From positions 1 through 52,138 of IMG/VR virus record IMGVR_UViG_3300028840_005437: a stretch of 52,138 bases of DNA. The stretch is one strand, 5' to 3'. The stretch's first letter is position 1. Every line of letters begins with the position of its first letter. Shown in pieces: positions 3,800 to 42,321 of this stretch. This DNA is from a virus (Duplodnaviria > Caudoviricetes). The position numbers and the translations under genes were made by a program. Under the pieces are notes generated by a model. The model did no database searches. It was not told the origin of the DNA and saw nothing but the letters and a program-made list of their open reading frames with translations.

Positions 3800-3872
3800 C
3801 TCCCCAAGCAAGACTCGAACTTGCGACTTCATGGTTAACAGCCATGCGCTCTACCAACTGAACTATTGGGGA
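3800..3872 (-). tRNA. tRNA-Asn(GTT)
   Basis: TCCCCAATAGTTCAGTTGGTAGAGCGCATGGCTGTTAACCATGAAGTCGCAAGTTCGAGTCTTGCTTGGGGAG: canonical cloverleaf; followed by TCA, so CCA is not encoded. Confidence 0.95.
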
Positions 3873-7513: not shown

Positions 7514-7694
7514 GGTTTCTCCTCTTGTTAATATCGTTTTGCTGACCTCGAAAAACGATCATAGATAATCCTCGAAACTCTGTTGAATATCCGGATCCTT
7601 CTGAAGCTTCTCCCCAAGCACTCGCAAAGCCTTTTCCGCAGCATAGCGAGACGCAAGTGATTTCGGGATTATCCACATTATAAATAGTCTTCAA
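7506..7694 (-). CDS. Hypothetical protein
   Basis: Overlaps neighbours in operon fashion. Confidence 0.45.
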   Translation of the reverse strand: MKTIYNVDNPEITCVSLCCGKGFASAWGEASEGSGYSTEFRGLSMIVFRGQQNDINKRRNHA

Positions 7695-8748
7695 AGGTTT
7701 TCTGACTGGCAGCCGCCTCGATGCGTTTGGCGGCTATCTCGCAATACTTTTTTTCCTTTTCGCAAAGAATCCAACGGCGATTTAAATGCTCGCATGCCAT
7801 AGCCATAGTGCCTGAACCTCCGAAGAAATCCATGCAAAGGTCGCCGGGATTGCTGGAATGCTTCAGGATATTCTCGATCAATCTTACAGGTTTTGGCGTT
7901 AAATGTCCGATTTGAGGCGCGGCTGAATAGTTCCAGACGCTATTATTCCAGTCCTGCAAGTGAAAACAAAAGTCACCGGTGACGGGTTGATTATTGAAGG
8001 TATATCTCAAGTCCTCGTATTCCTTCCTCAAGTCCTCGTATTCCTTCCTCAAGTACTCGTATTCCTTCCTCAAGTCCTCGTATTCCTTCCTCAAGTACTC
8101 GTTATTTAAGAATGCTCTAACTTTCAGATATTGATCTTTAGTGATTATGTTGTCACCATTCAGCCAATTAGAAACGCATCCAGTTAATCCACCCGTTTTA
8201 CTTGGAAATAAAGCCGCTATTTCTTTATTAGTAACACCCGCTTTTTTAAACTCATCCCGTAGGTACTGAGCGAATTTATTTTTTGGTTTAATATGTTCAT
8301 CTTTAATTGCCTCAAGCCCCGTCTCATCCTGAAAGGTATAGAAAAGGCAATATTCCGCCATTGTTTCATAATTGCGCGAACCATCAATAGCAAGATGTCG
8401 CATATAAAAGCCTCTATTTTTAGTTTCCTTAAAGTACTTATTCCAGACAATGAACTTTTTAAACACAAACTCCGTATTTTCTTCAATCCATCTCATCAAC
8501 CGAGCTATCACCGGCATTTTATTATGAAACCAGTAGAATGAACCGTTGTCTTTAAGCATCCTCTGACAGAGCTTGAAGACTGCTCCCATCCACTCTTGAT
8601 AATTATCGATCTTATCCCAGGTATCCTTCTTAATATTGTACGGCGGATCAATGCAAATCAAAGAAGCTTGTTCTTTGAGATACGGACCGATTTCCAAGCA
8701 ATCGCCGTGATAAAGTTTACCTCTCTCAGTCTCAAAATAAGGATTCAT
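7678..8748 (-). CDS. Beta-class N6-adenine/N4-cytosine DNA methyltransferase with an HTH and heptad-repeat insertion
   Basis: LYHGDCL, IDPPYN, HLTPKP, DFFGGSGT; probable start MNPYFETERG at 8748. Confidence 0.9.
   Translation of the reverse strand: MNPYFETERGKLYHGDCLEIGPYLKEQASLICIDPPYNIKKDTWDKIDNYQEWMGAVFKLCQRMLKDNGSFYWFHNKMPVIARLMRWIEENTEFVFKKFIVWNKYFKETKNRGFYMRHLAIDGSRNYETMAEYCLFYTFQDETGLEAIKDEHIKPKNKFAQYLRDEFKKAGVTNKEIAALFPSKTGGLTGCVSNWLNGDNIITKDQYLKVRAFLNNEYLRKEYEDLRKEYEYLRKEYEDLRKEYEDLRYTFNNQPVTGDFCFHLQDWNNSVWNYSAAPQIGHLTPKPVRLIENILKHSSNPGDLCMDFFGGSGTMAMACEHLNRRWILCEKEKKYCEIAAKRIEAAASQKTFEDYL
8004..8100 (-). repeat. 21-bp tandem repeat (~4.5 copies) encoding YEDLRKE heptads
   Basis: ctcaagtcctcgtattccttc repeated; protein EYLRKEYEDLRKEYEYLRKEYEDLRKEYEDLR. 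Confidence 0.9.
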
Positions 8749-9062
8749 CCTACTTCCTCGCTCCGCAATCTTCGCACATCGAAACCTCATGACAATCGCA
8801 ATATCGTTCGCCCGGATGGCAATATCCGCCTGTTCCGCCGCGCACGCAGACCTTTTTTTTGACGTAGTTATGAGAATATCTCCTGCCGCCGCAGATCGGA
8901 GGCTGCCCGGGTGGTCTGAAAATCGGCCGCGAACGCCCAGCAGGATTCTGGATTGGCTTCGATGCGCCTTAATCAGTATTTCGGGAATTTTTATTCGCCG
9001 CGAATTGAATCCTTCGGCATCGCCGAATATCAGCGCCGCGAAGACAAAAGCGAATATCTTTT

Positions 9063-9224
9063 TCACTGAACGCTCTCCGAATAATCTCGCCCTTTATCGG
9101 TGAGTTCCCATCCGTCACCCCTGAAATACTGAATCAATCCGGCATTCCACGCGCTTCTGAGATCATTATAGAAGTCTTCGGCGAAGCCTTTCACTTGCTC
9201 GCCGCTTTTTATTTTCCGCAACAT
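9063..9224 (-). CDS. Small hypothetical protein, 53 aa (winged-helix-like end)
   Basis: Manual translation MLRKIKSG...GLIQYFRGDGWELTDKGRDY. Confidence 0.5.
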   Translation of the reverse strand: MLRKIKSGEQVKGFAEDFYNDLRSAWNAGLIQYFRGDGWELTDKGRDYSESVQ

Positions 9225-19785: not shown

Positions 19786-20388
19786 TTACACTTCTATGAA
19801 AATAACCTGGCAATTAGCCGGTTTCAGTTTATTGAAAAAACATTGGAGTATGTCCAAAATCCCGTTTCCGAACACTAAAGGGAAAGCATAGGGAAATCCG
19901 CCCGTCAATTCATCCGTCACTTTCACGACAATGGTGAACCGGGATTCCTTGACCGATTCGAAAAAAAGAAGCGGGAAAACATAGGGAAATCCGGCCCCCG
20001 CTATTCCCGAAATCACTTCGACCGTCAAGCCGAACAAAGCGGCCAGCTCCTCGAAGTCGGTCGCGGTCTGCACGGCCGCCGTCAGCTTGGCGACCACGTT
20101 TATTCGGCGCTCATCCAGAGAGCCGCTTGCGTCGAATCAGTCGTCCGGGATTCCGACCGCCGATTCCCATTCCTCTATAAACTCCGTAGTCGTCGAAGGA
20201 TCAAGCTCCTCCCATACGGATTCGAGGAAATCCTCTCCCCTTTTGAAAGTCAGTCCCATGCCGAGAAGCAGTTGACGAACCTTCTTGCCGTCGATGCCCT
20301 TCGCCGCCCAAACGTCGTCGTCAGGCAGGTAAGCGGCAAGAGAGTCGGCATGTTCTTCTTTCGAGTGTCTAGTGAAAAGTTCAGTCAT
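19786..20388 (-). CDS. Baseplate protein (Mu gp48/YmfQ-like) with an in-frame TGA at 20137-20139
   Basis: Track ORFs 20137-20388 and 19786-20097 are in one frame: ..ELDPSTTTEFIEEWESAVGIPDD*FDASGSLDERRINVVAKL..LQCFFNKLKPAN. Confidence 0.75.
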
Positions 20389-20776
20389 CTTTTCTTATTG
20401 AAAAAACGTCGACGGGAATCCCGTAATATTTAATGTCGCTTTTCAAATTGGAAATTTTTATTCTATCGGCGTCATTCTTCCAGATTAAAACGACGGCTGC
20501 TTTTTTCCCCGTCAGTCTGGCGTACCTTAGAGCCTGCCCCAATCCTTCCGCCCATTTGCGAGCGAAATCGAATTCGACGGCGTATTCGCTCGTCACGCAG
20601 TCCGCCCTCGTTCCGTCGGAAAGACGGATTTCCATAATGCCGCCGTTAGCATGGCACCATCTTTCCTGATAATATCGTTCGTTTCTTTTTTCGGACCCGA
20701 ATGCTCTCTGAAAGCTCCTTGCGACAATCGCGAGCAACGCCGCCGTAATTATCAATGTTAGTATGGATTTTCGCAT
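20381..20776 (-). CDS. Signal-peptide/TM protein with a PD-(D/E)XK-like domain
   Basis: Hydrophobic N-terminus; E..YQ..WC..E..L.DGTRADC....AVEFD...KWAEGLGQAL.Y. Confidence 0.55.
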   Translation of the reverse strand: MRKSILTLIITAALLAIVARSFQRAFGSEKRNERYYQERWCHANGGIMEIRLSDGTRADCVTSEYAVEFDFARKWAEGLGQALRYARLTGKKAAVVLIWKNDADRIKISNLKSDIKYYGIPVDVFSIRKDD

Positions 20777-20785
20777 AGCCTTCCA

Positions 20786-22108
20786 TTAAAATGAAACAGG
20801 TCCTTTAACGGGCATTTCAGCGAAAGCCACAGAAATAGGATCGGCTGTTGGAGTGCTTAAAGTAAAACTCTGCACAGTGTCTCCCGTCTCGGTATCTATG
20901 GTATTTTGAATAACGGATATATATTGATTTTTAGGGATGTCTGTTCCGGGAGCCGCTGTTTCCTCAAAAAACGCGTCTAAGCTATTATTGATCGCCGCTT
21001 GCATCGTAGACGTATTCGGGATAAGCGTCCCATTAAAATCAAAAGGAATTTCTTTAGCGGTAATATCTTTGACAATAACATCCGCATCTTCCGTATTAGC
21101 GGGCTTAATTTCCAGTATTTTCGCTTTAGTTCTATCTATGTCGCCGGAAGTCGGTATGATTCCATCATTATCGCGCGTAAAGCGAATTGTTACTTGACCT
21201 GGCGCCGGATATGCAGGAGTAACCCATACTCGCGTGTTCCCTTCTACTTCCAATGCCTTCAGAGTAATGGCCGCTTCATTGAAATTAGCCACCGGATTCT
21301 GAACCCGAAACAGAAATCTGATTCTCTGATCTTCGGTGGATTCCTGATCGGCTCCGCCGGTTAAGCCGTTAATGTCGGCGAAAGCGCTGTTGTTGACTCC
21401 GGCTATAGGAACCGTGAAGGAAAACTCCGCGCCGGGGTCCTGGTTGGTGTCGGCTCCCGCGTAAAGCACGGGGCTGTCGTCCGCTTGCGCCGGAATAAGA
21501 GCCGTGTCGAAAGACGCCGTTATAGTCCCGGTGGCCGGAGTGCTCGGAGTCGTTTCTATTTCATAGGTGAAGGCGTTCGATGCCGTGACGGTGATCGTCC
21601 AGACGCCGTTATATTCGGCCTCGACCGCTCCGGCTATAAGCACGATTACGCCGCTGGCCAAGTTGTGATCGGCCGCCGTGACCGCCGTCACCGTTCCTCC
21701 GAAACGAGTCAGAGACGTGATTCCCAGACTTTGAGCCTGTATGGTTCCGCTCAGAGTCGTCTTGTACTGAATCGCTCCCGAAGAAAGTTTGGAGTTGTTC
21801 GGAACGATCGAGCCGGGAGTTCCCTGAGCCACTATGTATCCCGAAGCCCGCGAAGCCGGATTGGTGACGATGTTGAATATCGAAGACCAGCGATTAAGAT
21901 AAGGATTCTCGGCCGTGTCCCAAAAGGTCTGCTTGAGAATTTCCTTCAGCTTCTCGTAAGTGTCGAAGTTTCTGAAAGCCAAAGCCGCCGCGATCGCGCC
22001 GATCCAGGAATTTCGCAGAAAGGGATTGCTTCCCAGCAGTTCCGAACGAATATCGACCTTCGCCGCCTGATTTATCTCTTCTCTATTCGGAAAAATAATT
22101 TCGGACAT
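20786..22108 (-). CDS. Baseplate J / Mu gp47-like wedge protein
   Basis: FWDTAENPYL, GGADQESTEDQR.R, RVWVTP..PGQV; synteny. Confidence 0.9.
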   Translation of the reverse strand: MSEIIFPNREEINQAAKVDIRSELLGSNPFLRNSWIGAIAAALAFRNFDTYEKLKEILKQTFWDTAENPYLNRWSSIFNIVTNPASRASGYIVAQGTPGSIVPNNSKLSSGAIQYKTTLSGTIQAQSLGITSLTRFGGTVTAVTAADHNLASGVIVLIAGAVEAEYNGVWTITVTASNAFTYEIETTPSTPATGTITASFDTALIPAQADDSPVLYAGADTNQDPGAEFSFTVPIAGVNNSAFADINGLTGGADQESTEDQRIRFLFRVQNPVANFNEAAITLKALEVEGNTRVWVTPAYPAPGQVTIRFTRDNDGIIPTSGDIDRTKAKILEIKPANTEDADVIVKDITAKEIPFDFNGTLIPNTSTMQAAINNSLDAFFEETAAPGTDIPKNQYISVIQNTIDTETGDTVQSFTLSTPTADPISVAFAEMPVKGPVSF

Positions 22109-22110
22109 GA

Positions 22111-22554
22111 TTATTCAAAATTAGTCAGATTCCAAAGATCGTAATAAAACGGCTCTCCGTCAATGGTTATTAAAGCCTCGAGCGTTCCGTTTGAAATGGC
22201 GGTCTCGACCGTCACGTCTTTTGCCAGTCCGTCCTCGATTAGCCATTCGAGAGATTCCTCGATGTAGCTTTTGGCGTCGTTTTTCGTCGCGTCGTCCAAC
22301 CTGGCCTGCTTCAGAAGCCAAAGCTTGGAGCCGGCCTCGAAGCCCGGAAACGCGGATACGAGATTCCCTATCCAGCCGCTTCGATATTCGGGCGTAGGCA
22401 CTTCTCCTTCCGTCGCTCTCCTTCTTCCCGCCAGAGACATCGTCACGGTGGTCCCGAATCCGTCGTCGACTTGCAGGTCTCCGTTTTCGTCCAGGTTTAC
22501 GTCGAAAACTCCCTCGTCGTCCCGGATTAATTTCACGTCTACTGGTTGAGTCAT
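22111..22554 (-). CDS. Mu gp46-like baseplate protein
   Basis: GWIG..GSKLWLLKQA..AKSYIEESLEWLIEDG. Confidence 0.9.
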   Translation of the reverse strand: MTQPVDVKLIRDDEGVFDVNLDENGDLQVDDGFGTTVTMSLAGRRRATEGEVPTPEYRSGWIGNLVSAFPGFEAGSKLWLLKQARLDDATKNDAKSYIEESLEWLIEDGLAKDVTVETAISNGTLEALITIDGEPFYYDLWNLTNFE

Positions 22555-22564
22555 GATTGTTCTC

Positions 22565-22619
22565 GTCTAACCAATCGCTTCACCGGACGCTACCGCGCCG
22601 GTGAGCTCAGTCGTTAGAC
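22565..22619 (+). other. attC site 1 (type A, 55 bp)
   Basis: GTCTAAC-caatc-GCT(T)CACCGG(A)CGC-tacc-GCGCCGGTGAGC-tcagtc-GTTAGAC, two extrahelical bases. Confidence 0.9.
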
Positions 22620-22641
22620 CTTAACTTAATTGGAGAAAATT

Positions 22642-22881
22642 ATGTTTTTAAAATTATACACTCGCAGCATCGTTGAAATGGACCATATTGAAATTGAAGA
22701 TGCTCATATGGCAGTAGGACAAACTTTAATTCATGAGAAAAATGAATATATTATTTTCGAGATCACTCATTCCATAATAGGCAAACAAACAATTACTACG
22801 GTTCATTGCAGTGAAGGAACATATCTTGATCGCCTTAAAGTTTTACTCAGCAATGATTGGATCGCGGAAAGCGGCATTTAA
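22642..22881 (+). CDS. Cassette 1 ORF, hypothetical 79 aa
   Basis: GGAG RBS then ATG at 22642 just after attC1. Confidence 0.6.
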   Translation: MFLKLYTRSIVEMDHIEIEDAHMAVGQTLIHEKNEYIIFEITHSIIGKQTITTVHCSEGTYLDRLKVLLSNDWIAESGI

Positions 22882-23034
22882 TTGCTTCTCCGCGTTCTCT
22901 TTGAGAGTTTTTATTTGTTTCGTTAAATCTTCTTCTTGATGGCCTTCTTTATTTAACTCCATTAAACTCAGGGCTAGATAGTCTGATGCCTTATGTAAAT
23001 TCGTGATAATTTTTGTTTTGCTTTGTGCGTTCAT
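22843..23034 (-). CDS. Cassette 1 antisense ORF, helical 63 aa
   Basis: ORF convergent with 22642-22881 inside the same cassette. Confidence 0.4.
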   Translation of the reverse strand: MNAQSKTKIITNLHKASDYLALSLMELNKEGHQEEDLTKQIKTLKENAEKQLNAAFRDPIIAE

Positions 23035-23051
23035 GGCTATTTTATTGCTTA

Positions 23052-23122
23052 GTCTAACAAATTGCTAGACGCGAACATCACGCCGCTTCGCGGCTCATGT
23101 CGCGTCAGCTCCGTCGTTAGAT
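23052..23122 (+). other. attC site 2 (type B, 71 bp)
   Basis: GTCTAAC..GCT(A)GACGCGA(A)CAT..GCCGC-TTC-GCGGC..ATGTCGCGTCAGC..GTTAGAT. Confidence 0.9.
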
Positions 23123-23155
23123 AGCAATCCAAAAAATATTAATAATAGAGGAATT

Positions 23156-23548
23156 ATGAGAAAAAGAATAAAAGCGGTATTCATAAAAATAGTAGCTAAT
23201 TTTACCTGGGTCTCCATGCTTATTATTTCTTTTTTTTTAGTTTTCGCTTCACTCATATATTCCTTCCATATAAAAGATTTCGATATATTCGCGAGTTCAG
23301 GAGCAATTGTTACTATTGCAGGCATCTATCTTTCTTTTTGGCCTACCATAAATTTAACCCCCCAAAATGAAACCGAATTAATGGCTCATAAACTCGCATT
23401 TATGCGTTTCTGGCCCAAAAAAGGCACCGATGAATATGATCAGCTTCTTCAAGAAGCAAGACAAATACTTAGAAATGAAAGAATTGGTTTTGGAATGTCT
23501 ATAATTGGTACTTTTATTTGGGCTTATGGTGGTTATATTACTATCTAA
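23156..23548 (+). CDS. Cassette 2 ORF, multi-TM membrane protein, 130 aa
   Basis: About three hydrophobic helices; stop TAA lies inside the R'' box (ATCTAAC) of attC3, as is typical of cassettes. Confidence 0.75.
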   Translation: MRKRIKAVFIKIVANFTWVSMLIISFFLVFASLIYSFHIKDFDIFASSGAIVTIAGIYLSFWPTINLTPQNETELMAHKLAFMRFWPKKGTDEYDQLLQEARQILRNERIGFGMSIIGTFIWAYGGYITI

Positions 23549-23597
23549 CAAATCGCTTCACCGGACGCTACCGCGCCGGTGAGCTCAGTCGTTAGAC
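23543..23597 (+). other. attC site 3 (type A)
   Basis: Near-identical to attC1. Confidence 0.9.
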
Positions 23598-23619
23598 CTT
23601 AACTTAATTGGAGAAAATT

Positions 23620-23829
23620 ATGAATTTAGAAAACAAAATACGCCAAGATGTTGAAAGAGATTTAAGGCGTAAAATAGGATATTTAAAATGTCAGGTGCAT
23701 TTAGAGGCGCCCCGAATCAACTTCAAAAATATGATTGGCAATAAAGTCAATTTTAATGTTTCCGGTTGCTGCCCTGAGTTTGACGACATCTTAAAAAAAA
23801 AACTTATTAGTCTTGGCTATCGCTTTTAA
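23620..23829 (+). CDS. Cassette 3 ORF, hypothetical 69 aa
   Basis: Same leader and RBS as cassette 1; C..H...CC.EF motif. Confidence 0.6.
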   Translation: MNLENKIRQDVERDLRRKIGYLKCQVHLEAPRINFKNMIGNKVNFNVSGCCPEFDDILKKKLISLGYRF

Positions 23830-23983
23830 AGTCTATGCCTACTTCAGCGGTTCGCAGGCAAATACTGTAATAAAGCCAATTTTTATTTTCCTCATCTCCT
23901 TTAACCTCTGATTCGGAAGCTACTATTTCCGTGTTTTCGTCATTCAGCAAATCTATTAAAAATTGCTTATCTATTACGCCCAT
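23807..23983 (-). CDS. Cassette 3 antisense ORF, 58 aa
   Basis: Manual translation MGVIDKQFLIDLLNDENTEIVASESEVKG...; GAGG RBS. Confidence 0.4.
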   Translation of the reverse strand: MGVIDKQFLIDLLNDENTEIVASESEVKGDEENKNWLYYSICLRTAEVGIDFKSDSQD

Positions 23984-24206
23984 AAATATTTAATCCTCAT
24001 ATTACCAGCAAATTCGAGGAGTTACCAAAAAGCGAAATCGCTTCCCAGGGAAAGGAGGAATTTTCTTGCTTCATTCATCTGCGCGACGCTAAGTACTACA
24101 TCCCTGTTAATAATGGTGTGCCTAATAATAATACGGTCTTTGTTCGTCTTTCTCTTGAAAAAATACATGGGTTCTCTCTTGGAACATTAGAAGTTAGAGA
24201 ATAACG

Positions 24207-24277
24207 GCCTAACAAATCGCTAGACGCGAACATCACGCCGCTTCGCGGCTCATGTCGCGTCAGCTCCGTCGTTAGAT
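24207..24277 (+). other. attC site 4 (type B)
   Basis: Near-identical to attC2. Confidence 0.9.
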
Positions 24278-24297
24278 ATTTAAATTCGGAGAAAATT

Positions 24298-24747
24298 ATG
24301 AACGAATATAAAAAACTATTGAAGCAGTTCTCGGATCATCCGATCACAATAAATGATATTGAAAACAATGGATTCGATATTAACTCCAAAGAATTCGTAA
24401 CTTCTTTCCAATGGCTTGAGTCAGAGCAATTAATAACGCCACTATCTGAGTCCACTTGCGGGCTTAGATTATATGACAATGGTAGTCCCCTTTGGGTTCC
24501 AGTTGAGCTTGTCATTACCAAAAAAGGAAAAGACTATCTTGATCCGCCTAAACTTGAGAGTGATAAGCTGAAAAACTGGCTGTTTAAACCACTTATTGTT
24601 GCAATAATTACATCTCTGGTTTCTGGCGCCATTGGTTTCTATATAGGAAAAAAATTGCAACAGAACAAATTATGCCAACAAATAAGCCACCCGCAAAAGA
24701 AGCTGCCCAAACCACATGAATTAATTCAGAACACATCAAATCCATAA
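24298..24747 (+). CDS. Cassette 4 ORF: winged-helix-like N-terminus plus C-terminal TM, 149 aa
   Basis: WLESEQLI..LVITKKGKDYL then TM LIVAIITSLVSGAIGFYIG; GGAG RBS. Confidence 0.7.
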   Translation: MNEYKKLLKQFSDHPITINDIENNGFDINSKEFVTSFQWLESEQLITPLSESTCGLRLYDNGSPLWVPVELVITKKGKDYLDPPKLESDKLKNWLFKPLIVAIITSLVSGAIGFYIGKKLQQNKLCQQISHPQKKLPKPHELIQNTSNP

Positions 24748-24775
24748 TGCTGAAATCATCAATATATTAATGTAT

Positions 24776-24832
24776 ATCTAACAAGTCGCTAGAGCCGACG
24801 CCTACCGGCGCGGCTGAACTCAATCGTTAATC
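24776..24832 (+). other. attC site 5 (divergent, 57 bp)
   Basis: ATCTAAC-aagtc-GCTAGAGCCG(A)CGCC-tacc-GGCGCGGCTGAAC-tcaatc-GTTAATC. Confidence 0.75.
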
Positions 24833-24881
24833 ATGCATATTTTATTCCGTTTACGCCGGGATACGGCGTTAAGAGCGCAAT

Positions 24882-25340
24882 CTATGGAGCCGGAGGACCG
24901 GACAAGCCCGCTCCCGTCGTCACTCCCGTGTGAACATGCGTAATCAGGTCCGAAATAACCAAAGTTCCTCCCTTCCAAACCTCTATCGTTCCTTGGTCCG
25001 TGAATTTCAAATAAGTCGGAACGGTAGCCGAGAAAGCTCCGACGACCACCTCTTTGGAATTGTGCGCCGGAATGGTCTTGGGATCGTAGGCGATTCCGAC
25101 CTGATTCGAGCTTTCGCCCTGGACGTTGAACTTGACTCCCGACGCGCCGACCGGCGGCTTGGCCGCTAATCCGTAGGGACTCAGCAACTCCACGTATGAC
25201 GTCTTTCCCAATGCGTCGACCTGCGCGTCCGGGTATTCGCCGGCCTCATAGGGTTCCGATTCGGTCACTATAAGACGCTGAATCATCGTCATGATTTTGT
25301 TTTTCAAAGCCGCTAGAGCGGCCTCCACTATAGGCGTCAT
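24882..25340 (-). CDS. Baseplate spike (Mu gp45/gpV-like)
   Basis: PYGLAAKPP; C-terminal HxH motif THVHTGVTTG..SGPP. Confidence 0.9.
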   Translation of the reverse strand: MTPIVEAALAALKNKIMTMIQRLIVTESEPYEAGEYPDAQVDALGKTSYVELLSPYGLAAKPPVGASGVKFNVQGESSNQVGIAYDPKTIPAHNSKEVVVGAFSATVPTYLKFTDQGTIEVWKGGTLVISDLITHVHTGVTTGAGLSGPPAP

Positions 25341-26497
25341 TAAAAAAACCCCAATGGAAGATCGCTGTAGCGATTTCCTATTTGCTCCTGAACCGGTATT
25401 TCAGGAAAGGCGTAGGCGCCGGGATTGACGCAGACGAGTTTCGTCGTCGAACCGCCGCTTTCGCTTTCTCTGAAAATCACGTCTCGAACCAGCATTTTGC
25501 CGTTTATATCCGCGTAATCGTCCAGCACGTTAACCGCTATATTGGAATCCCATACGTTTTCACCTAAAGAATGCCCCTGCATAAGAACATCGTAAATAAT
25601 AGATTCGCTCTGAATTTTCACGGCTTCCCATCTGGTTCTGTCCTGACAATCATTTTGCGAGGACGGATTTTCCGCAATCAGATACTTTTGCCGAGTAGTG
25701 CGAATATTCGGGTCGATAACGAAGTCACTCGTTAAAATCAGATTTTCCGGAGTGATTTCCGACAGTTTGCTTATATCACCCCTCGCCGGCTGGGAAGCGG
25801 CTCTGTAGACGTTGAAACGCTTGGTCCCGTCATAACTAACCGACATTTCCTTCAGAATATTATTATTTTGATTATCCGCCGTGTTTCTTATTACGAAAGG
25901 AGACGGAGAATTGCCGCGACCGCGAGTGAACACCAGATCGCCGTTGCCGTTAGTAGTGACCAGGACGCTTCTTTTTCGAGCGAATTTCTCTATTATTTCG
26001 ATATACTTTTGCCCGGGTTCCTCGTTCAAATCCTCGTCGTCCCTGAAATCTTCTATATCCTCGTCGATCGCCACCTTGATGAACGGCTCGATAGCGGGAG
26101 CGATAATGGCCGGAAGAGGAGCCGCTCCCGGAACGATGGAGTTCTCAAGATATCCTATCAGAGTTTCCGCGACGGTTCTCAGCGATTGCTTCCCTCTGAA
26201 CTGAACTCTTGAGTCAATCGAAGAATCAATCAAATCTCCCGTTTTGGTTCGCCCCGCAAGAGTGAATAAATCCTGGCCGGCGCTTTGCGTTCTTTGAAGC
26301 TTCTCGATGAATCCGTCCAGTCTCAACTGTTCGTCGACGTAAATTCTTATGCTATTGCCGACTTTAAGACGAAAATCGCCGAAATCGGTCGACGCGGTCG
26401 TGAAGGAAAAGCTTCTTACCGCGTTCAGCAAAGACGCTCTCAGAGATATTTCCTTAAATCCGTCATAAGGCAGTCTGTTGACCTCGACTCGCATCAT
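25340..26497 (-). CDS. Baseplate hub (Mu gp44-like)
   Basis: LDGFIEK..GRTKTGDLIDS, VLVTTNGNGDLV; synteny. Confidence 0.85.
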   Translation of the reverse strand: MMRVEVNRLPYDGFKEISLRASLLNAVRSFSFTTASTDFGDFRLKVGNSIRIYVDEQLRLDGFIEKLQRTQSAGQDLFTLAGRTKTGDLIDSSIDSRVQFRGKQSLRTVAETLIGYLENSIVPGAAPLPAIIAPAIEPFIKVAIDEDIEDFRDDEDLNEEPGQKYIEIIEKFARKRSVLVTTNGNGDLVFTRGRGNSPSPFVIRNTADNQNNNILKEMSVSYDGTKRFNVYRAASQPARGDISKLSEITPENLILTSDFVIDPNIRTTRQKYLIAENPSSQNDCQDRTRWEAVKIQSESIIYDVLMQGHSLGENVWDSNIAVNVLDDYADINGKMLVRDVIFRESESGGSTTKLVCVNPGAYAFPEIPVQEQIGNRYSDLPLGFF

Positions 26498-41001: not shown

Positions 41002-42321
41002 CTACAGCGCTCTCGCTCTACGTCGTTGTTTTTTGCGTCCCGATTCGAGAAAAAGATAAGTTCCCCCCCAGACAAGCGCGTCAACTCTATTCGGAGATTT
41101 TCCAAGTCCCGGAACCCATTCAAGCTGTTCGTTCTCCAGCTTGTCCAGACCTTCCATGTGCTTTATCTGACCGTTTTCGTACAATGTGACGATTGGCTCC
41201 GCTCTTGGATGCTTGCCCTTGCTGGCAGGCACAAGCTTCACCGGGACCGTCGGGTCTTCCGCCCTCAAAGCCATTTTCACCAAAGCTCCTCCCTGGTTCT
41301 TTTCGGCCACTATCTTGTTGGCTCCGTAATACTGATAAGCCCACACCGCCTTTTTAGCCCATTGGGTCGCGGAAAGTTCCCCGCTATAATCGGCGACCAC
41401 AACCGCGTTGCCGTCCGGGCCTCTAAACGGAGTATCCTTGGACATCACCACAATTCCAACTTCGTCGGCCGTGAAATTTTCGCCCGGCTTTATGTCGTCG
41501 GCGACGTTCGGATCCAGAGCGACGACGGTCAAAGGAGCGTTCGTCATCCACGGTTCGCGGTCTTCTTCTGAAAGCTGCACCGCGTTAATCAGATCGTTGC
41601 TCCAAAGAGCGCCTTCGGTGTCGGAGGCGAAAAGGCCATGTTTAAATCTATCTCGCTTGCGCTTTCCCATGCTGTCAAGGACCTTAAAATAGGTCTTCGG
41701 CAAATGACGCTTGTTGTGAACTGGATTTATAAGCAACGATCCGTAATCTCTTTTCGCCGATTCAGACAGCTTTTTGTCGTTGTCGGGATGAATGCCCTTC
41801 ATGAATAGCTTGTATATCCAATGCTTTTTACTGGGCGGGTTGCAGTCGCCCAACAGTCTAAGCGGGAGCCCCGATTTTTCCCCTAAACGAGTTTTTATCG
41901 TGTCCTGGTGATGAAAATTCATTTCGGAGGCTTCGCTTAATAAAATAGTGCTATAGCGATTTCCTAAAATTTTATCCAGCCTTTCTCCTTCGTCCAGGCC
42001 GGCGAACCAGATCATGGATTTATTGTGAAATTCGCAATACCAGTCACCTTTATTGAGTTGGTAATGGACGTCTTTTTTTAAGCCTGGAAAACACTCGGCT
42101 AAAACATCGGGAAGCGTCTCATACCAAATCGACCGCTTAACGGCGTTAAATGTCCTTCTGAAAAAAACATGACGCGAAACCTTATGCAGAGCTCTTGTCA
42201 CCGTGACATACACGTTAGTGAACGTCTTGCCGGAATTACTTCCGCCAAACAGCATAGTGAACAGATGTTCTCCAATTAGATCAATCGCCTCTCGTTGCCT
42301 GGGATTTCTATCAAAAGACAT
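41002..42321 (-). CDS. terL: Terminase large subunit
   Basis: GGSNSGKT, LSEASE, DCNP, VALDP, AEKNQGG, SPNRVDALVW. Confidence 0.95.
   Translation of the reverse strand: MSFDRNPRQREAIDLIGEHLFTMLFGGSNSGKTFTNVYVTVTRALHKVSRHVFFRRTFNAVKRSIWYETLPDVLAECFPGLKKDVHYQLNKGDWYCEFHNKSMIWFAGLDEGERLDKILGNRYSTILLSEASEMNFHHQDTIKTRLGEKSGLPLRLLGDCNPPSKKHWIYKLFMKGIHPDNDKKLSESAKRDYGSLLINPVHNKRHLPKTYFKVLDSMGKRKRDRFKHGLFASDTEGALWSNDLINAVQLSEEDREPWMTNAPLTVVALDPNVADDIKPGENFTADEVGIVVMSKDTPFRGPDGNAVVVADYSGELSATQWAKKAVWAYQYYGANKIVAEKNQGGALVKMALRAEDPTVPVKLVPASKGKHPRAEPIVTLYENGQIKHMEGLDKLENEQLEWVPGLGKSPNRVDALVWGGTYLFLESGRKKQRRRARAL

Follow-up and report, generated by a model that had tools for sequence, protein, structure and literature searches.

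An attC cassette array between two baseplate genes of an uncultured tailed phage, and a 95-nt module common to two of its cassettes

Groups of clustered attC sites that have no integron integrase (CALINs) are the closest described counterparts of the locus reported here. Seventeen of them have been reported in phages by Qi et al. (2023, PMC9892861), who found that five of six tested phage attC sites were recombined by the integrase IntI1. Cury et al. (2016, PMC4889954) state that the attC sites of one integron resemble each other more than they do those of other integrons, and describe the manner in which cassettes are created as unknown. We analysed a linear virus record of 52,138 nucleotides (IMG/VR IMGVR_UViG_3300028840_005437, positions 1 to 52,138, here called the window), assigned to Caudoviricetes (Duplodnaviria), in which five attC sites and four small cassettes stand between two genes of a Mu-type baseplate row. 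A first-pass annotation of this sequence had noticed that cassettes 1 and 3 begin with an identical leader and end in near-identical attC sites around unrelated cargo, and had proposed that a fixed frame of leader plus attC is being loaded with captured DNA, as a possible record of how cassettes arise.

The cassette array and its attC sites

The five attC sites follow one another in the order A1-B1-A2-B2-C, all on the plus strand and within 2.3 kb (22565-24832; Table 1). The sites open with a YCTAAC box and close with GTTAGAY, site C closing instead with GTTAATC. Measured against the attC consensus given by Qi et al. (R'' RYYYAAC, R' GTTRRRY; PMC9892861), A1, B1 and A2 fit in both boxes, the R'' box of B2 (GCCTAAC) fits, and the R' box of C is off by one position; the attC box pattern was matched 10 times against an expectation of 0.66. 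When the minus strand was folded as DNA, with z-scores taken relative to shuffled sequence, four of the five sites formed on this bottom strand an R stem of 6-7 bp, a spacer left unpaired, an L stem whose 3' arm has two bulges, and a variable loop. The TTAATC half of site C stays unpaired with its own R'' box, and its R' box (GTTAATC) pairs with neither A1 nor C.

Scanned across 185,579 species, each represented by a single genome, the box pattern returned seven loci, of which five (L003, L005, L006, L007 and L009) have the same stem layout by eye and two (L004 and L008) have no clear attC stem layout. Two of these loci, L003 (1540-1602) and L006 (663-725), carry a near-identical 63-nt attC site (3 mismatches) followed by different sequence, and the metagenome-assembled genomes (MAGs) to which they belong are filed under different names, as an unclassified bacterium and as Nitrospira. 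RNAalifold, applied to the five phage sites together with the five MAG sites of that stem layout, gave 18 consensus pairs, eight of them with compensatory changes. A covariance model of our own (R1), built from the alignment of these 10 sites, recovered exactly the five sites when run over the window, at 61-73 bits and all on the plus strand; on MAG contigs L026, L028 and L029 it placed sites upstream of, and divergent from, intI, and on L027 it placed none (E<=0.01). IntI scores above the TIGR02249 curated cut-off in three of the five MAGs that bear the same attC box type. The five sites of the phage are classical attC sites.

If crossover is placed at the G|TT of the R' box, the array divides into four cassettes, and in each of them the R'' box finds more pairing partners in the 5' end of its own cassette than in that of the current neighbour: 9/9 against 6/9 in cassette 2 and again in cassette 4, 7/9 against 6/9 in cassette 1, and 7/9 against 5/9 in cassette 3. 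Hence the cassettes look like units that were once circular and were later shuffled. Neither an integron integrase (TIGR02249) nor a tyrosine recombinase (PF00589) was found in the whole 52-kb record, which also gave no reverse transcriptase or group II intron signal and only a tRNA among Rfam matches. With five attC sites and no integrase detected in the record, the array of four cassettes is, by the definition of Cury et al. (PMC4889954), a phage-borne CALIN. Besides the integrase, it differs from a complete integron in that it begins with an attC that adjoins a baseplate gene and that no promoter signal rises above chance: a scan for promoters and terminators counted 3 promoter-like sites where 7.3 were expected, and 7 terminator-like sites where the expectation was 3.7 +/- 2.0. 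A gap of 10 nt separates the ATG of that baseplate gene, a gp46 homologue, from the R'' box of attC-A1; at the opposite end, 49 nt (24833-24881) with a short GC hairpin (ACGCCG...CGGCGT) lie between attC-C and the stop codon of a gp45-like gene. The cassettes have a GC content of 0.35-0.38, while that of the phage DNA on either side is roughly 0.45-0.52, and are AT-rich foreign DNA. A blastn comparison of the array with plasmids gave no match.

The common module and the cargo genes

The leader noticed in the first-pass annotation is present in exactly two copies, at 22613-22644 and 23591-23622, identical over all 32 nt, where none was expected (100 shuffles); since its initial G precedes the crossover, it is the first 31 nt of cassettes 1 and 3 that are identical. 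At the other end of the two cassettes the type-B sites proved as alike as had been claimed, the repeats at 23054-23123 and 24209-24278 being 99% identical over 70 nt with one mismatch. The leader repeat is in fact longer than had been described: a repeat finder delimited a unit of 88 nt at 95% identity, composed of a 54-nt type-A hairpin site and 25 nt of leader, and fading a few bases into the open reading frame (ORF). When each cassette is considered in its circular form, the leader comes to lie directly behind the cassette's own attC, and cassettes 1 and 3 therefore share one module and not two separate ends. This module is a contiguous 95 nt, comprising attC-B, TTAGAC and a 25-nt leader that ends in GGAG-N6-ATG, and the two copies are identical at 93 of the 95 positions.

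Past the start codon, the first 39 nt of cassettes 1 and 3 agree in register at 20 positions, against an in-frame null with a mean of 10.8 and a standard deviation of 2.9, in which a score of 20 is attained by 0.26% of windows; in the same comparison other pairs of cassettes attain 16 and 13. These figures suggest, weakly, that the similarity fades over some 13 codons with no sharp stop at the ATG, which is not how a clean frame edge would look. Cassette 1 may retain a short piece of a gene like that of cassette 3, because the N-terminus of the cassette 3 protein aligns with its own family.

Cassette 4 had also been credited with a related leader. The resemblance consists of a 13-nt match (GGAGAAAATTATG at 24288-24300) and did not hold up: with TCGTTAGA required upstream, the string still turns up at 11 unrelated loci in metagenomes, it is like the phage's own ribosome-binding sites, and by eye 0/11 of the metagenome loci returned by the pattern of R' box, 8-16 nt and GGAGAAAATTATG are linked to an attC. 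It reads as a generic Shine-Dalgarno-to-ATG string. Nor could further cassettes with the leader and attC-B be collected, as the annotation had hoped. Exact scans of 2.9 million viral contigs for the leader and the attC boxes gave no match, and neither attC-A nor attC-B was among the seven matches to the one pattern run over the species genomes. With leader and attC-B unseen elsewhere in the scanned collections, the notion of a frame being loaded comes down to n=2.

Unitig depths in a source-like metagenome were 30.2, 25.9 and 23.7 for the cassettes, 24.6-28.1 for the phage backbone, and 58 and 50.7 for the repeats; at about twice the backbone depth, the repeats therefore correspond to two copies per phage with no large extra pool. 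These depths come from runs X1 and X2, whose contigs are identical and which may themselves be the source sample; the depths are therefore not independent support. Contigs of four sequencing runs over the region have no joints or variants at the attC sites, contigs being prone to drop rare variants.

The cargos of cassettes 1 and 3 are unrelated as far as sequence comparison can detect, in keeping with the first-pass annotation and with the 20/39 agreement after the ATG as a qualification. Comparison of the two payloads by blastn gave only chance matches of 7-12 nt, the best tblastx match had E 0.57, the plus-strand proteins (c1+ and c3+) had no BLASTP match at E<=100, and hhalign of c1+ against the c3+ family profile returned a probability of 0.13%. 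Among 5.8 billion proteins c1+ matched only itself, and it occurred in 0/401 Pseudomonadota genomes. Its ESM Atlas model has a pLDDT of 0.76 and its single-sequence AF2 model is poor (pLDDT 45); ESM Atlas matches for c1+ and for the opposing minus-strand ORF (c1-) scored 0.80-0.87, below the threshold of 0.9, and serve as leads only.

The c3+ protein is probably metal-binding. Nine distant homologues of 66-87 aa (E 1e-5 to 1e-3) have C24, H27, C50 and C51 invariant; a Foldseek search with the model gave no match in PDB or BFVD at E<=0.001. The family was absent from all five attC-bearing MAGs (0/5) and present in 3/401 Pseudomonadota genomes, the best match (genome G324) being 34% identical at E 2e-14. 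There the relative adjoins a TnsE_C-domain protein in an island of ~50% GC set in a region of 60-70% GC, with no detectable attC, and so the cargo family of c3+ also lives outside integrons. The island looks like the cargo of a Tn7-like element. Further neighbours in this lower-GC stretch of roughly 9 kb (L033 6165-13693) are a homologue of staphylococcal nuclease and an AAA-type ATPase of 614 aa. Of source loci without attC, which the annotation had proposed to seek, the searches gave one family member beside a TnsE-like gene; no close source locus was found for c3+, whose best relatives are 34-39% identical, and none at all for c1+. For the proteins of the cassettes, Pfam, NCBIfam, PHROGs and PADLOC gave nothing meaningful and PDB sequences gave no match, and tblastn of the cassette 2, c3+ and cassette 4 proteins against phages was likewise without a match.

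On the minus strand of cassettes 1 and 3 lie three ORFs that are probable genes, longer than would be expected by chance. Their coordinates are as first annotated, and so are the convergent overlaps of 39 nt (c1- with c1+) and 23 nt (c3-58 with c3+). The c1- ORF fills the space between c1+ and attC-B, and an ORF of such length arises in 1.45% of dinucleotide shuffles (22843-23052); it has no homologue, and its own sequence is absent from the protein collection. Tandem same-strand ORFs of at least 48 and at least 58 aa, such as take up the corresponding space in cassette 3, arise in 0.05% of shuffles. The longer of the two, c3-58, matched only itself in the protein collection, and c3-48 had no family or PDB match. 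A 75-aa plus-strand ORF (23963-24190) overlaps c3-48, and one of the two must therefore be a shadow; a three-position codon-composition score was near zero even for training genes and is too weak to part real from shadow ORFs. The order of a basic 48-aa and then an acidic 58-aa ORF is, as a layout alone, suggestive of toxin-antitoxin, a pairing for which Pfam, NCBIfam, PHROG, PADLOC and PDB gave no match. Because the flanking baseplate genes are also on the minus strand, read-through from the gp45-like gene could express these ORFs, as the first-pass annotation had supposed from the late transcript; the argument is one of orientation alone.

Table 1. Coordinates of the array, its cassettes and ORFs, and the neighbouring baseplate genes in the window
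Feature	Position	Strand	Remarks
attC-A1	22565..22619	+	first site, without cassette upstream; R1 71.6 bits; fold z -4.6
attC-B1	23052..23122	+	attC of cassette 1; R1 69.8 bits; fold z -4.5; 99% identical to B2
attC-A2	23543..23597	+	attC of cassette 2; R1 72.8 bits; fold z -4.5
attC-B2	24207..24277	+	attC of cassette 3; R1 71.9 bits; fold z -3.2
attC-C	24776..24832	+	last site; off-consensus R' (GTTAATC); R1 61.3 bits; L stem only, z -2.0
Cassette 1	22614..23116	+	503 nt, GC 0.368
Cassette 2	23117..23591	+	475 nt, GC 0.349
Cassette 3	23592..24271	+	680 nt, GC 0.379
Cassette 4	24272..24826	+	555 nt, GC 0.373
Shared 5' end of cassette 1	22614..22644	+	TTAGAC of R' box, 22-nt untranslated stretch with GGAG, ATG; identical to 23592-23622
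c1+ ORF	22642..22881	+	79 aa; strong ribosome-binding site
c1- ORF	22843..23034	-	63 aa, candidate gene; convergent with c1+; no clear ribosome-binding site
Cassette 2 ORF	23156-23548	+	130 aa, multi-hydrophobic-segment; TAA stop inside R'' box
c3+ ORF	23620..23829	+	69 aa, small Cys/His, alpha-beta-beta-alpha; AF2 pLDDT 88
c3-58 ORF	23807..23983	-	58 aa, acidic, candidate gene; GAGGA ribosome-binding site
c3-48 ORF	24022..24168	-	48 aa, basic, candidate gene upstream of c3-58
Cassette 4 ORF	24298-24747	+	149 aa, one hydrophobic segment near C-terminus
Mu gp44-like gene	25340-26497	-	Pfam
Mu gp45-like baseplate spike gene	24882..25340	-	right flank of insert; Pfam Phage_Mu_Gp45 E 2.6e-6, Apex E 2.3e-4
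Mu gp46-like baseplate wedge gene	22111..22554	-	left flank of insert; Pfam GP46 E 5e-19; PHROG 180 E 1e-21
Baseplate_J (gp47) gene	20786-22108	-	Pfam
Mu gp48-like gene	19786-20388	-	Pfam Phage_Mu_Gp48
Whole IMG/VR virus record	52 kb		linear; CheckV completeness 89%

Origin of the common module

We put about an even chance on cassettes 1 and 3 being siblings from one unsampled source integron, the repeat unit of which would be the 95-nt attC-plus-leader module. Both cassettes would then have been inherited by the phage and not made there, having existed as circles and been placed by integrase-type crossovers at G|TT; further movement would depend on an integron integrase supplied in trans by the host, with the folded minus (bottom) strand as its substrate, and the cargo might be expressed from either strand. 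Several observations weigh against this account. The leader stands behind an attC-A both times, as a block of 79 nt with one mismatch, and duplication of an A-plus-leader block would explain that without any integrase. Furthermore, A1 is leftmost and has no cassette upstream, so that simple insertion of a circle into a GTT target in the phage, as a single event, fails to explain the layout of the array. The viral, species-genome and metagenome scans brought up no integron that has attC-A, attC-B or the leader and could be the source, and a limited search of the literature found neither an integron whose conserved repeat continues beyond the R' box for 25 nt as far as a start codon nor a description of an attC repeat extended to a ribosome-binding site and ATG. 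As the record is 89% complete, a recombinase could also sit in the missing part. With two instances and no source found, the finding is a lead and not a result.

The same blocks invite an explanation by replacement of cargo, in which a cassette (or the blocks A-plus-leader and B) was duplicated in the phage or in a donor and the interior of one copy was swapped by illegitimate or short-homology recombination, the common route to phage mosaics, with the ends as linkers. The A-plus-leader block is uninterrupted in both copies, as is the 70-nt B block with its single mismatch; a fade over some 13 codons past the ATG (20/39; 0.26%) is what an old recombination edge might leave; a PD-(D/E)XK nuclease and an SMC/AAA-type ATPase of the phage could serve such recombination; and the module was not found elsewhere. 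Against this, the identity has its edges at the first base of R'' and at the start codon, functional boundaries on which random breakpoints would be unlikely to fall, the complementarity of R'' with the cassettes' own 5' ends bespeaks behaviour as integrase-type circles, and the 20/39 signal is weak beside the 16 and 13 of other cassette pairs. We consider such a replacement unlikely. The proposal made at first pass, that attC-B plus leader is a reusable frame joined to arbitrary DNA, with cassettes 1 and 3 as two recent products and the array as a record of cassette genesis, fares well in one part, for the backbone is fixed and in circular form a single piece (93/95), and one joining event per cassette would suffice. 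The cargos are unrelated, one cargo gene has relatives outside integrons and without attC, and cassette creation figures as an open problem in Cury et al. (PMC4889954). For the loading itself, however, we found no evidence: there is no third cassette in any scan, the best c3+ relatives are distant and c1+ has none, the record shows no sign of an integrase, a reverse transcriptase or a group II intron, and all four cassettes are equally low in GC, so that nothing marks 1 and 3 as freshly captured. Genesis from a frame is on these grounds quite improbable, and its boldest form is a long shot: that the 95-nt piece is a cassette-making module onto which arbitrary DNA, genes that are elsewhere found without attC included, would be circularised and so gain at once a site for recombination and a start for translation, the antisense array letting the late transcript express the minus-strand genes of the cargo. 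Descent from a source integron and genesis from a frame are related explanations, since homogeneous attC sites within one integron are thought to reflect local creation of cassettes (PMC4889954); what divides them is whether anything generative is recorded at this locus.

Two simpler accounts would remove the question. Were the cassettes an ordinary duplication, their cargos would be homologues that drifted past recognition while selection or gene conversion kept the ends, and both the similar sizes of the plus-strand ORFs (79 and 69 aa) and the weak in-register likeness of the opening 13 codons (20/39 nt, with 6 residues identical) could be so read. We find this very improbable in view of the failure of BLASTP and hhalign to relate the proteins, the different predicted structures (beta-beta-beta-alpha for c1+, at low confidence, against alpha-beta-beta-alpha for c3+), the lack of the invariant C/H/CC residues in c1+, and 3' halves that differ in length and ORF content; ends that are 98-100% identical beside interiors that cannot be aligned do not fit uniform divergence. 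Alternatively, the repeats might have led the assembler to stitch together cassettes of different genomes. In the k=31 graph the exact repeats are longer than k, unitigs break there, and the graph does not fix which of cassettes 1 and 3 comes first. Yet each cassette unitig has a depth like that of the backbone with the repeats at ~2x, cassette 2 bridges B to A, the c1+ and c3-58 ORFs are each found on three contigs of which the longest (56,070 nt) is the same, and an exchange of cassettes 1 and 3 would leave the finding unchanged, which makes an artefact scarcely credible.

The phage and comparison with known systems

By Pfam the record belongs to an uncultured tailed phage with capsid, portal and terminase genes and, encoded on the minus strand, a baseplate row of the Mu type, in which homologues of gp44, gp45, gp46, gp47 (Baseplate_J) and gp48 follow in order from 26497 down to 19786. 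Adjacent baseplate genes overlap or abut, and the array, lying antisense, parts the gp45-like from the gp46-like gene by 2.3 kb. The nearest named phages are just 27-38% identical, and no related phage with an empty gp45/gp46 junction was found in viral contigs searched with Baseplate_J and the terminase; the large terminase (41002-42321, minus strand) is closest to those of two Synechococcus phages, at 38% identity. The gp48-like gene is split by one in-frame TGA (20137-20139; ...GIPDD*FDASG...), and both halves match Phage_Mu_Gp48, at profile positions 2-63 (E 1e-6) and 85-148 (E 0.011); nonsense mutation, an error of sequencing or recoding might each account for the codon, and other long ORFs seem intact under table 11. 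Between Baseplate_J and the gp48-like gene, a 131-aa ORF (20381-20776, minus strand) with a hydrophobic N-terminus and no family match resembles a second small insert in the baseplate row, one without attC sites. The phage also carries a tRNA-Asn(GTT) (3800-3872) and an N6/N4 DNA methylase (7678-9066; Pfam E 1.5e-39), both on the minus strand.

Like the phage CALINs of Qi et al. (PMC9892861), the array has at least two co-oriented attC sites, small cassettes, no integrase, and cargo without known function. It is unlike those treated in the main text of that paper, among whose listed CALINs a similar case is possible, in that it splits a tightly coupled Mu-type baseplate operon between gp45 and gp46, in antisense, and that two of its cassettes share a module. 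Canonical cassettes inside an essential tail operon support phages as vehicles for cassette exchange.

Sedentary chromosomal integrons are characterised by homogeneous attC repeats, those of Vibrio cholerae being an example. With them the locus has in common unrelated cargos, each followed by a near-identical attC, a pattern taken as the trace of creation in one host (PMC4889954); it is unlike them in having no integrase, no long array and two copies only, and in a conserved unit that runs 25 nt past R' to a ribosome-binding site and ATG. The locus thereby offers a compact pair of cassettes that bears on the question of cassette creation left open by Cury et al. (PMC4889954), and the 95-nt module is a concrete sequence to seek in metagenomes and to test at the bench.

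A likeness to phage morons should also be considered, small AT-rich accessory genes between essential late genes, with short conserved boundaries around unrelated genes, being common to both. T4-type phages have promoter-stem-loop cassettes, in which conserved linkers bound mosaic modules or morons. The boundaries described here, unlike these, are canonical attC sites with G|TT logic and not promoters or terminators.

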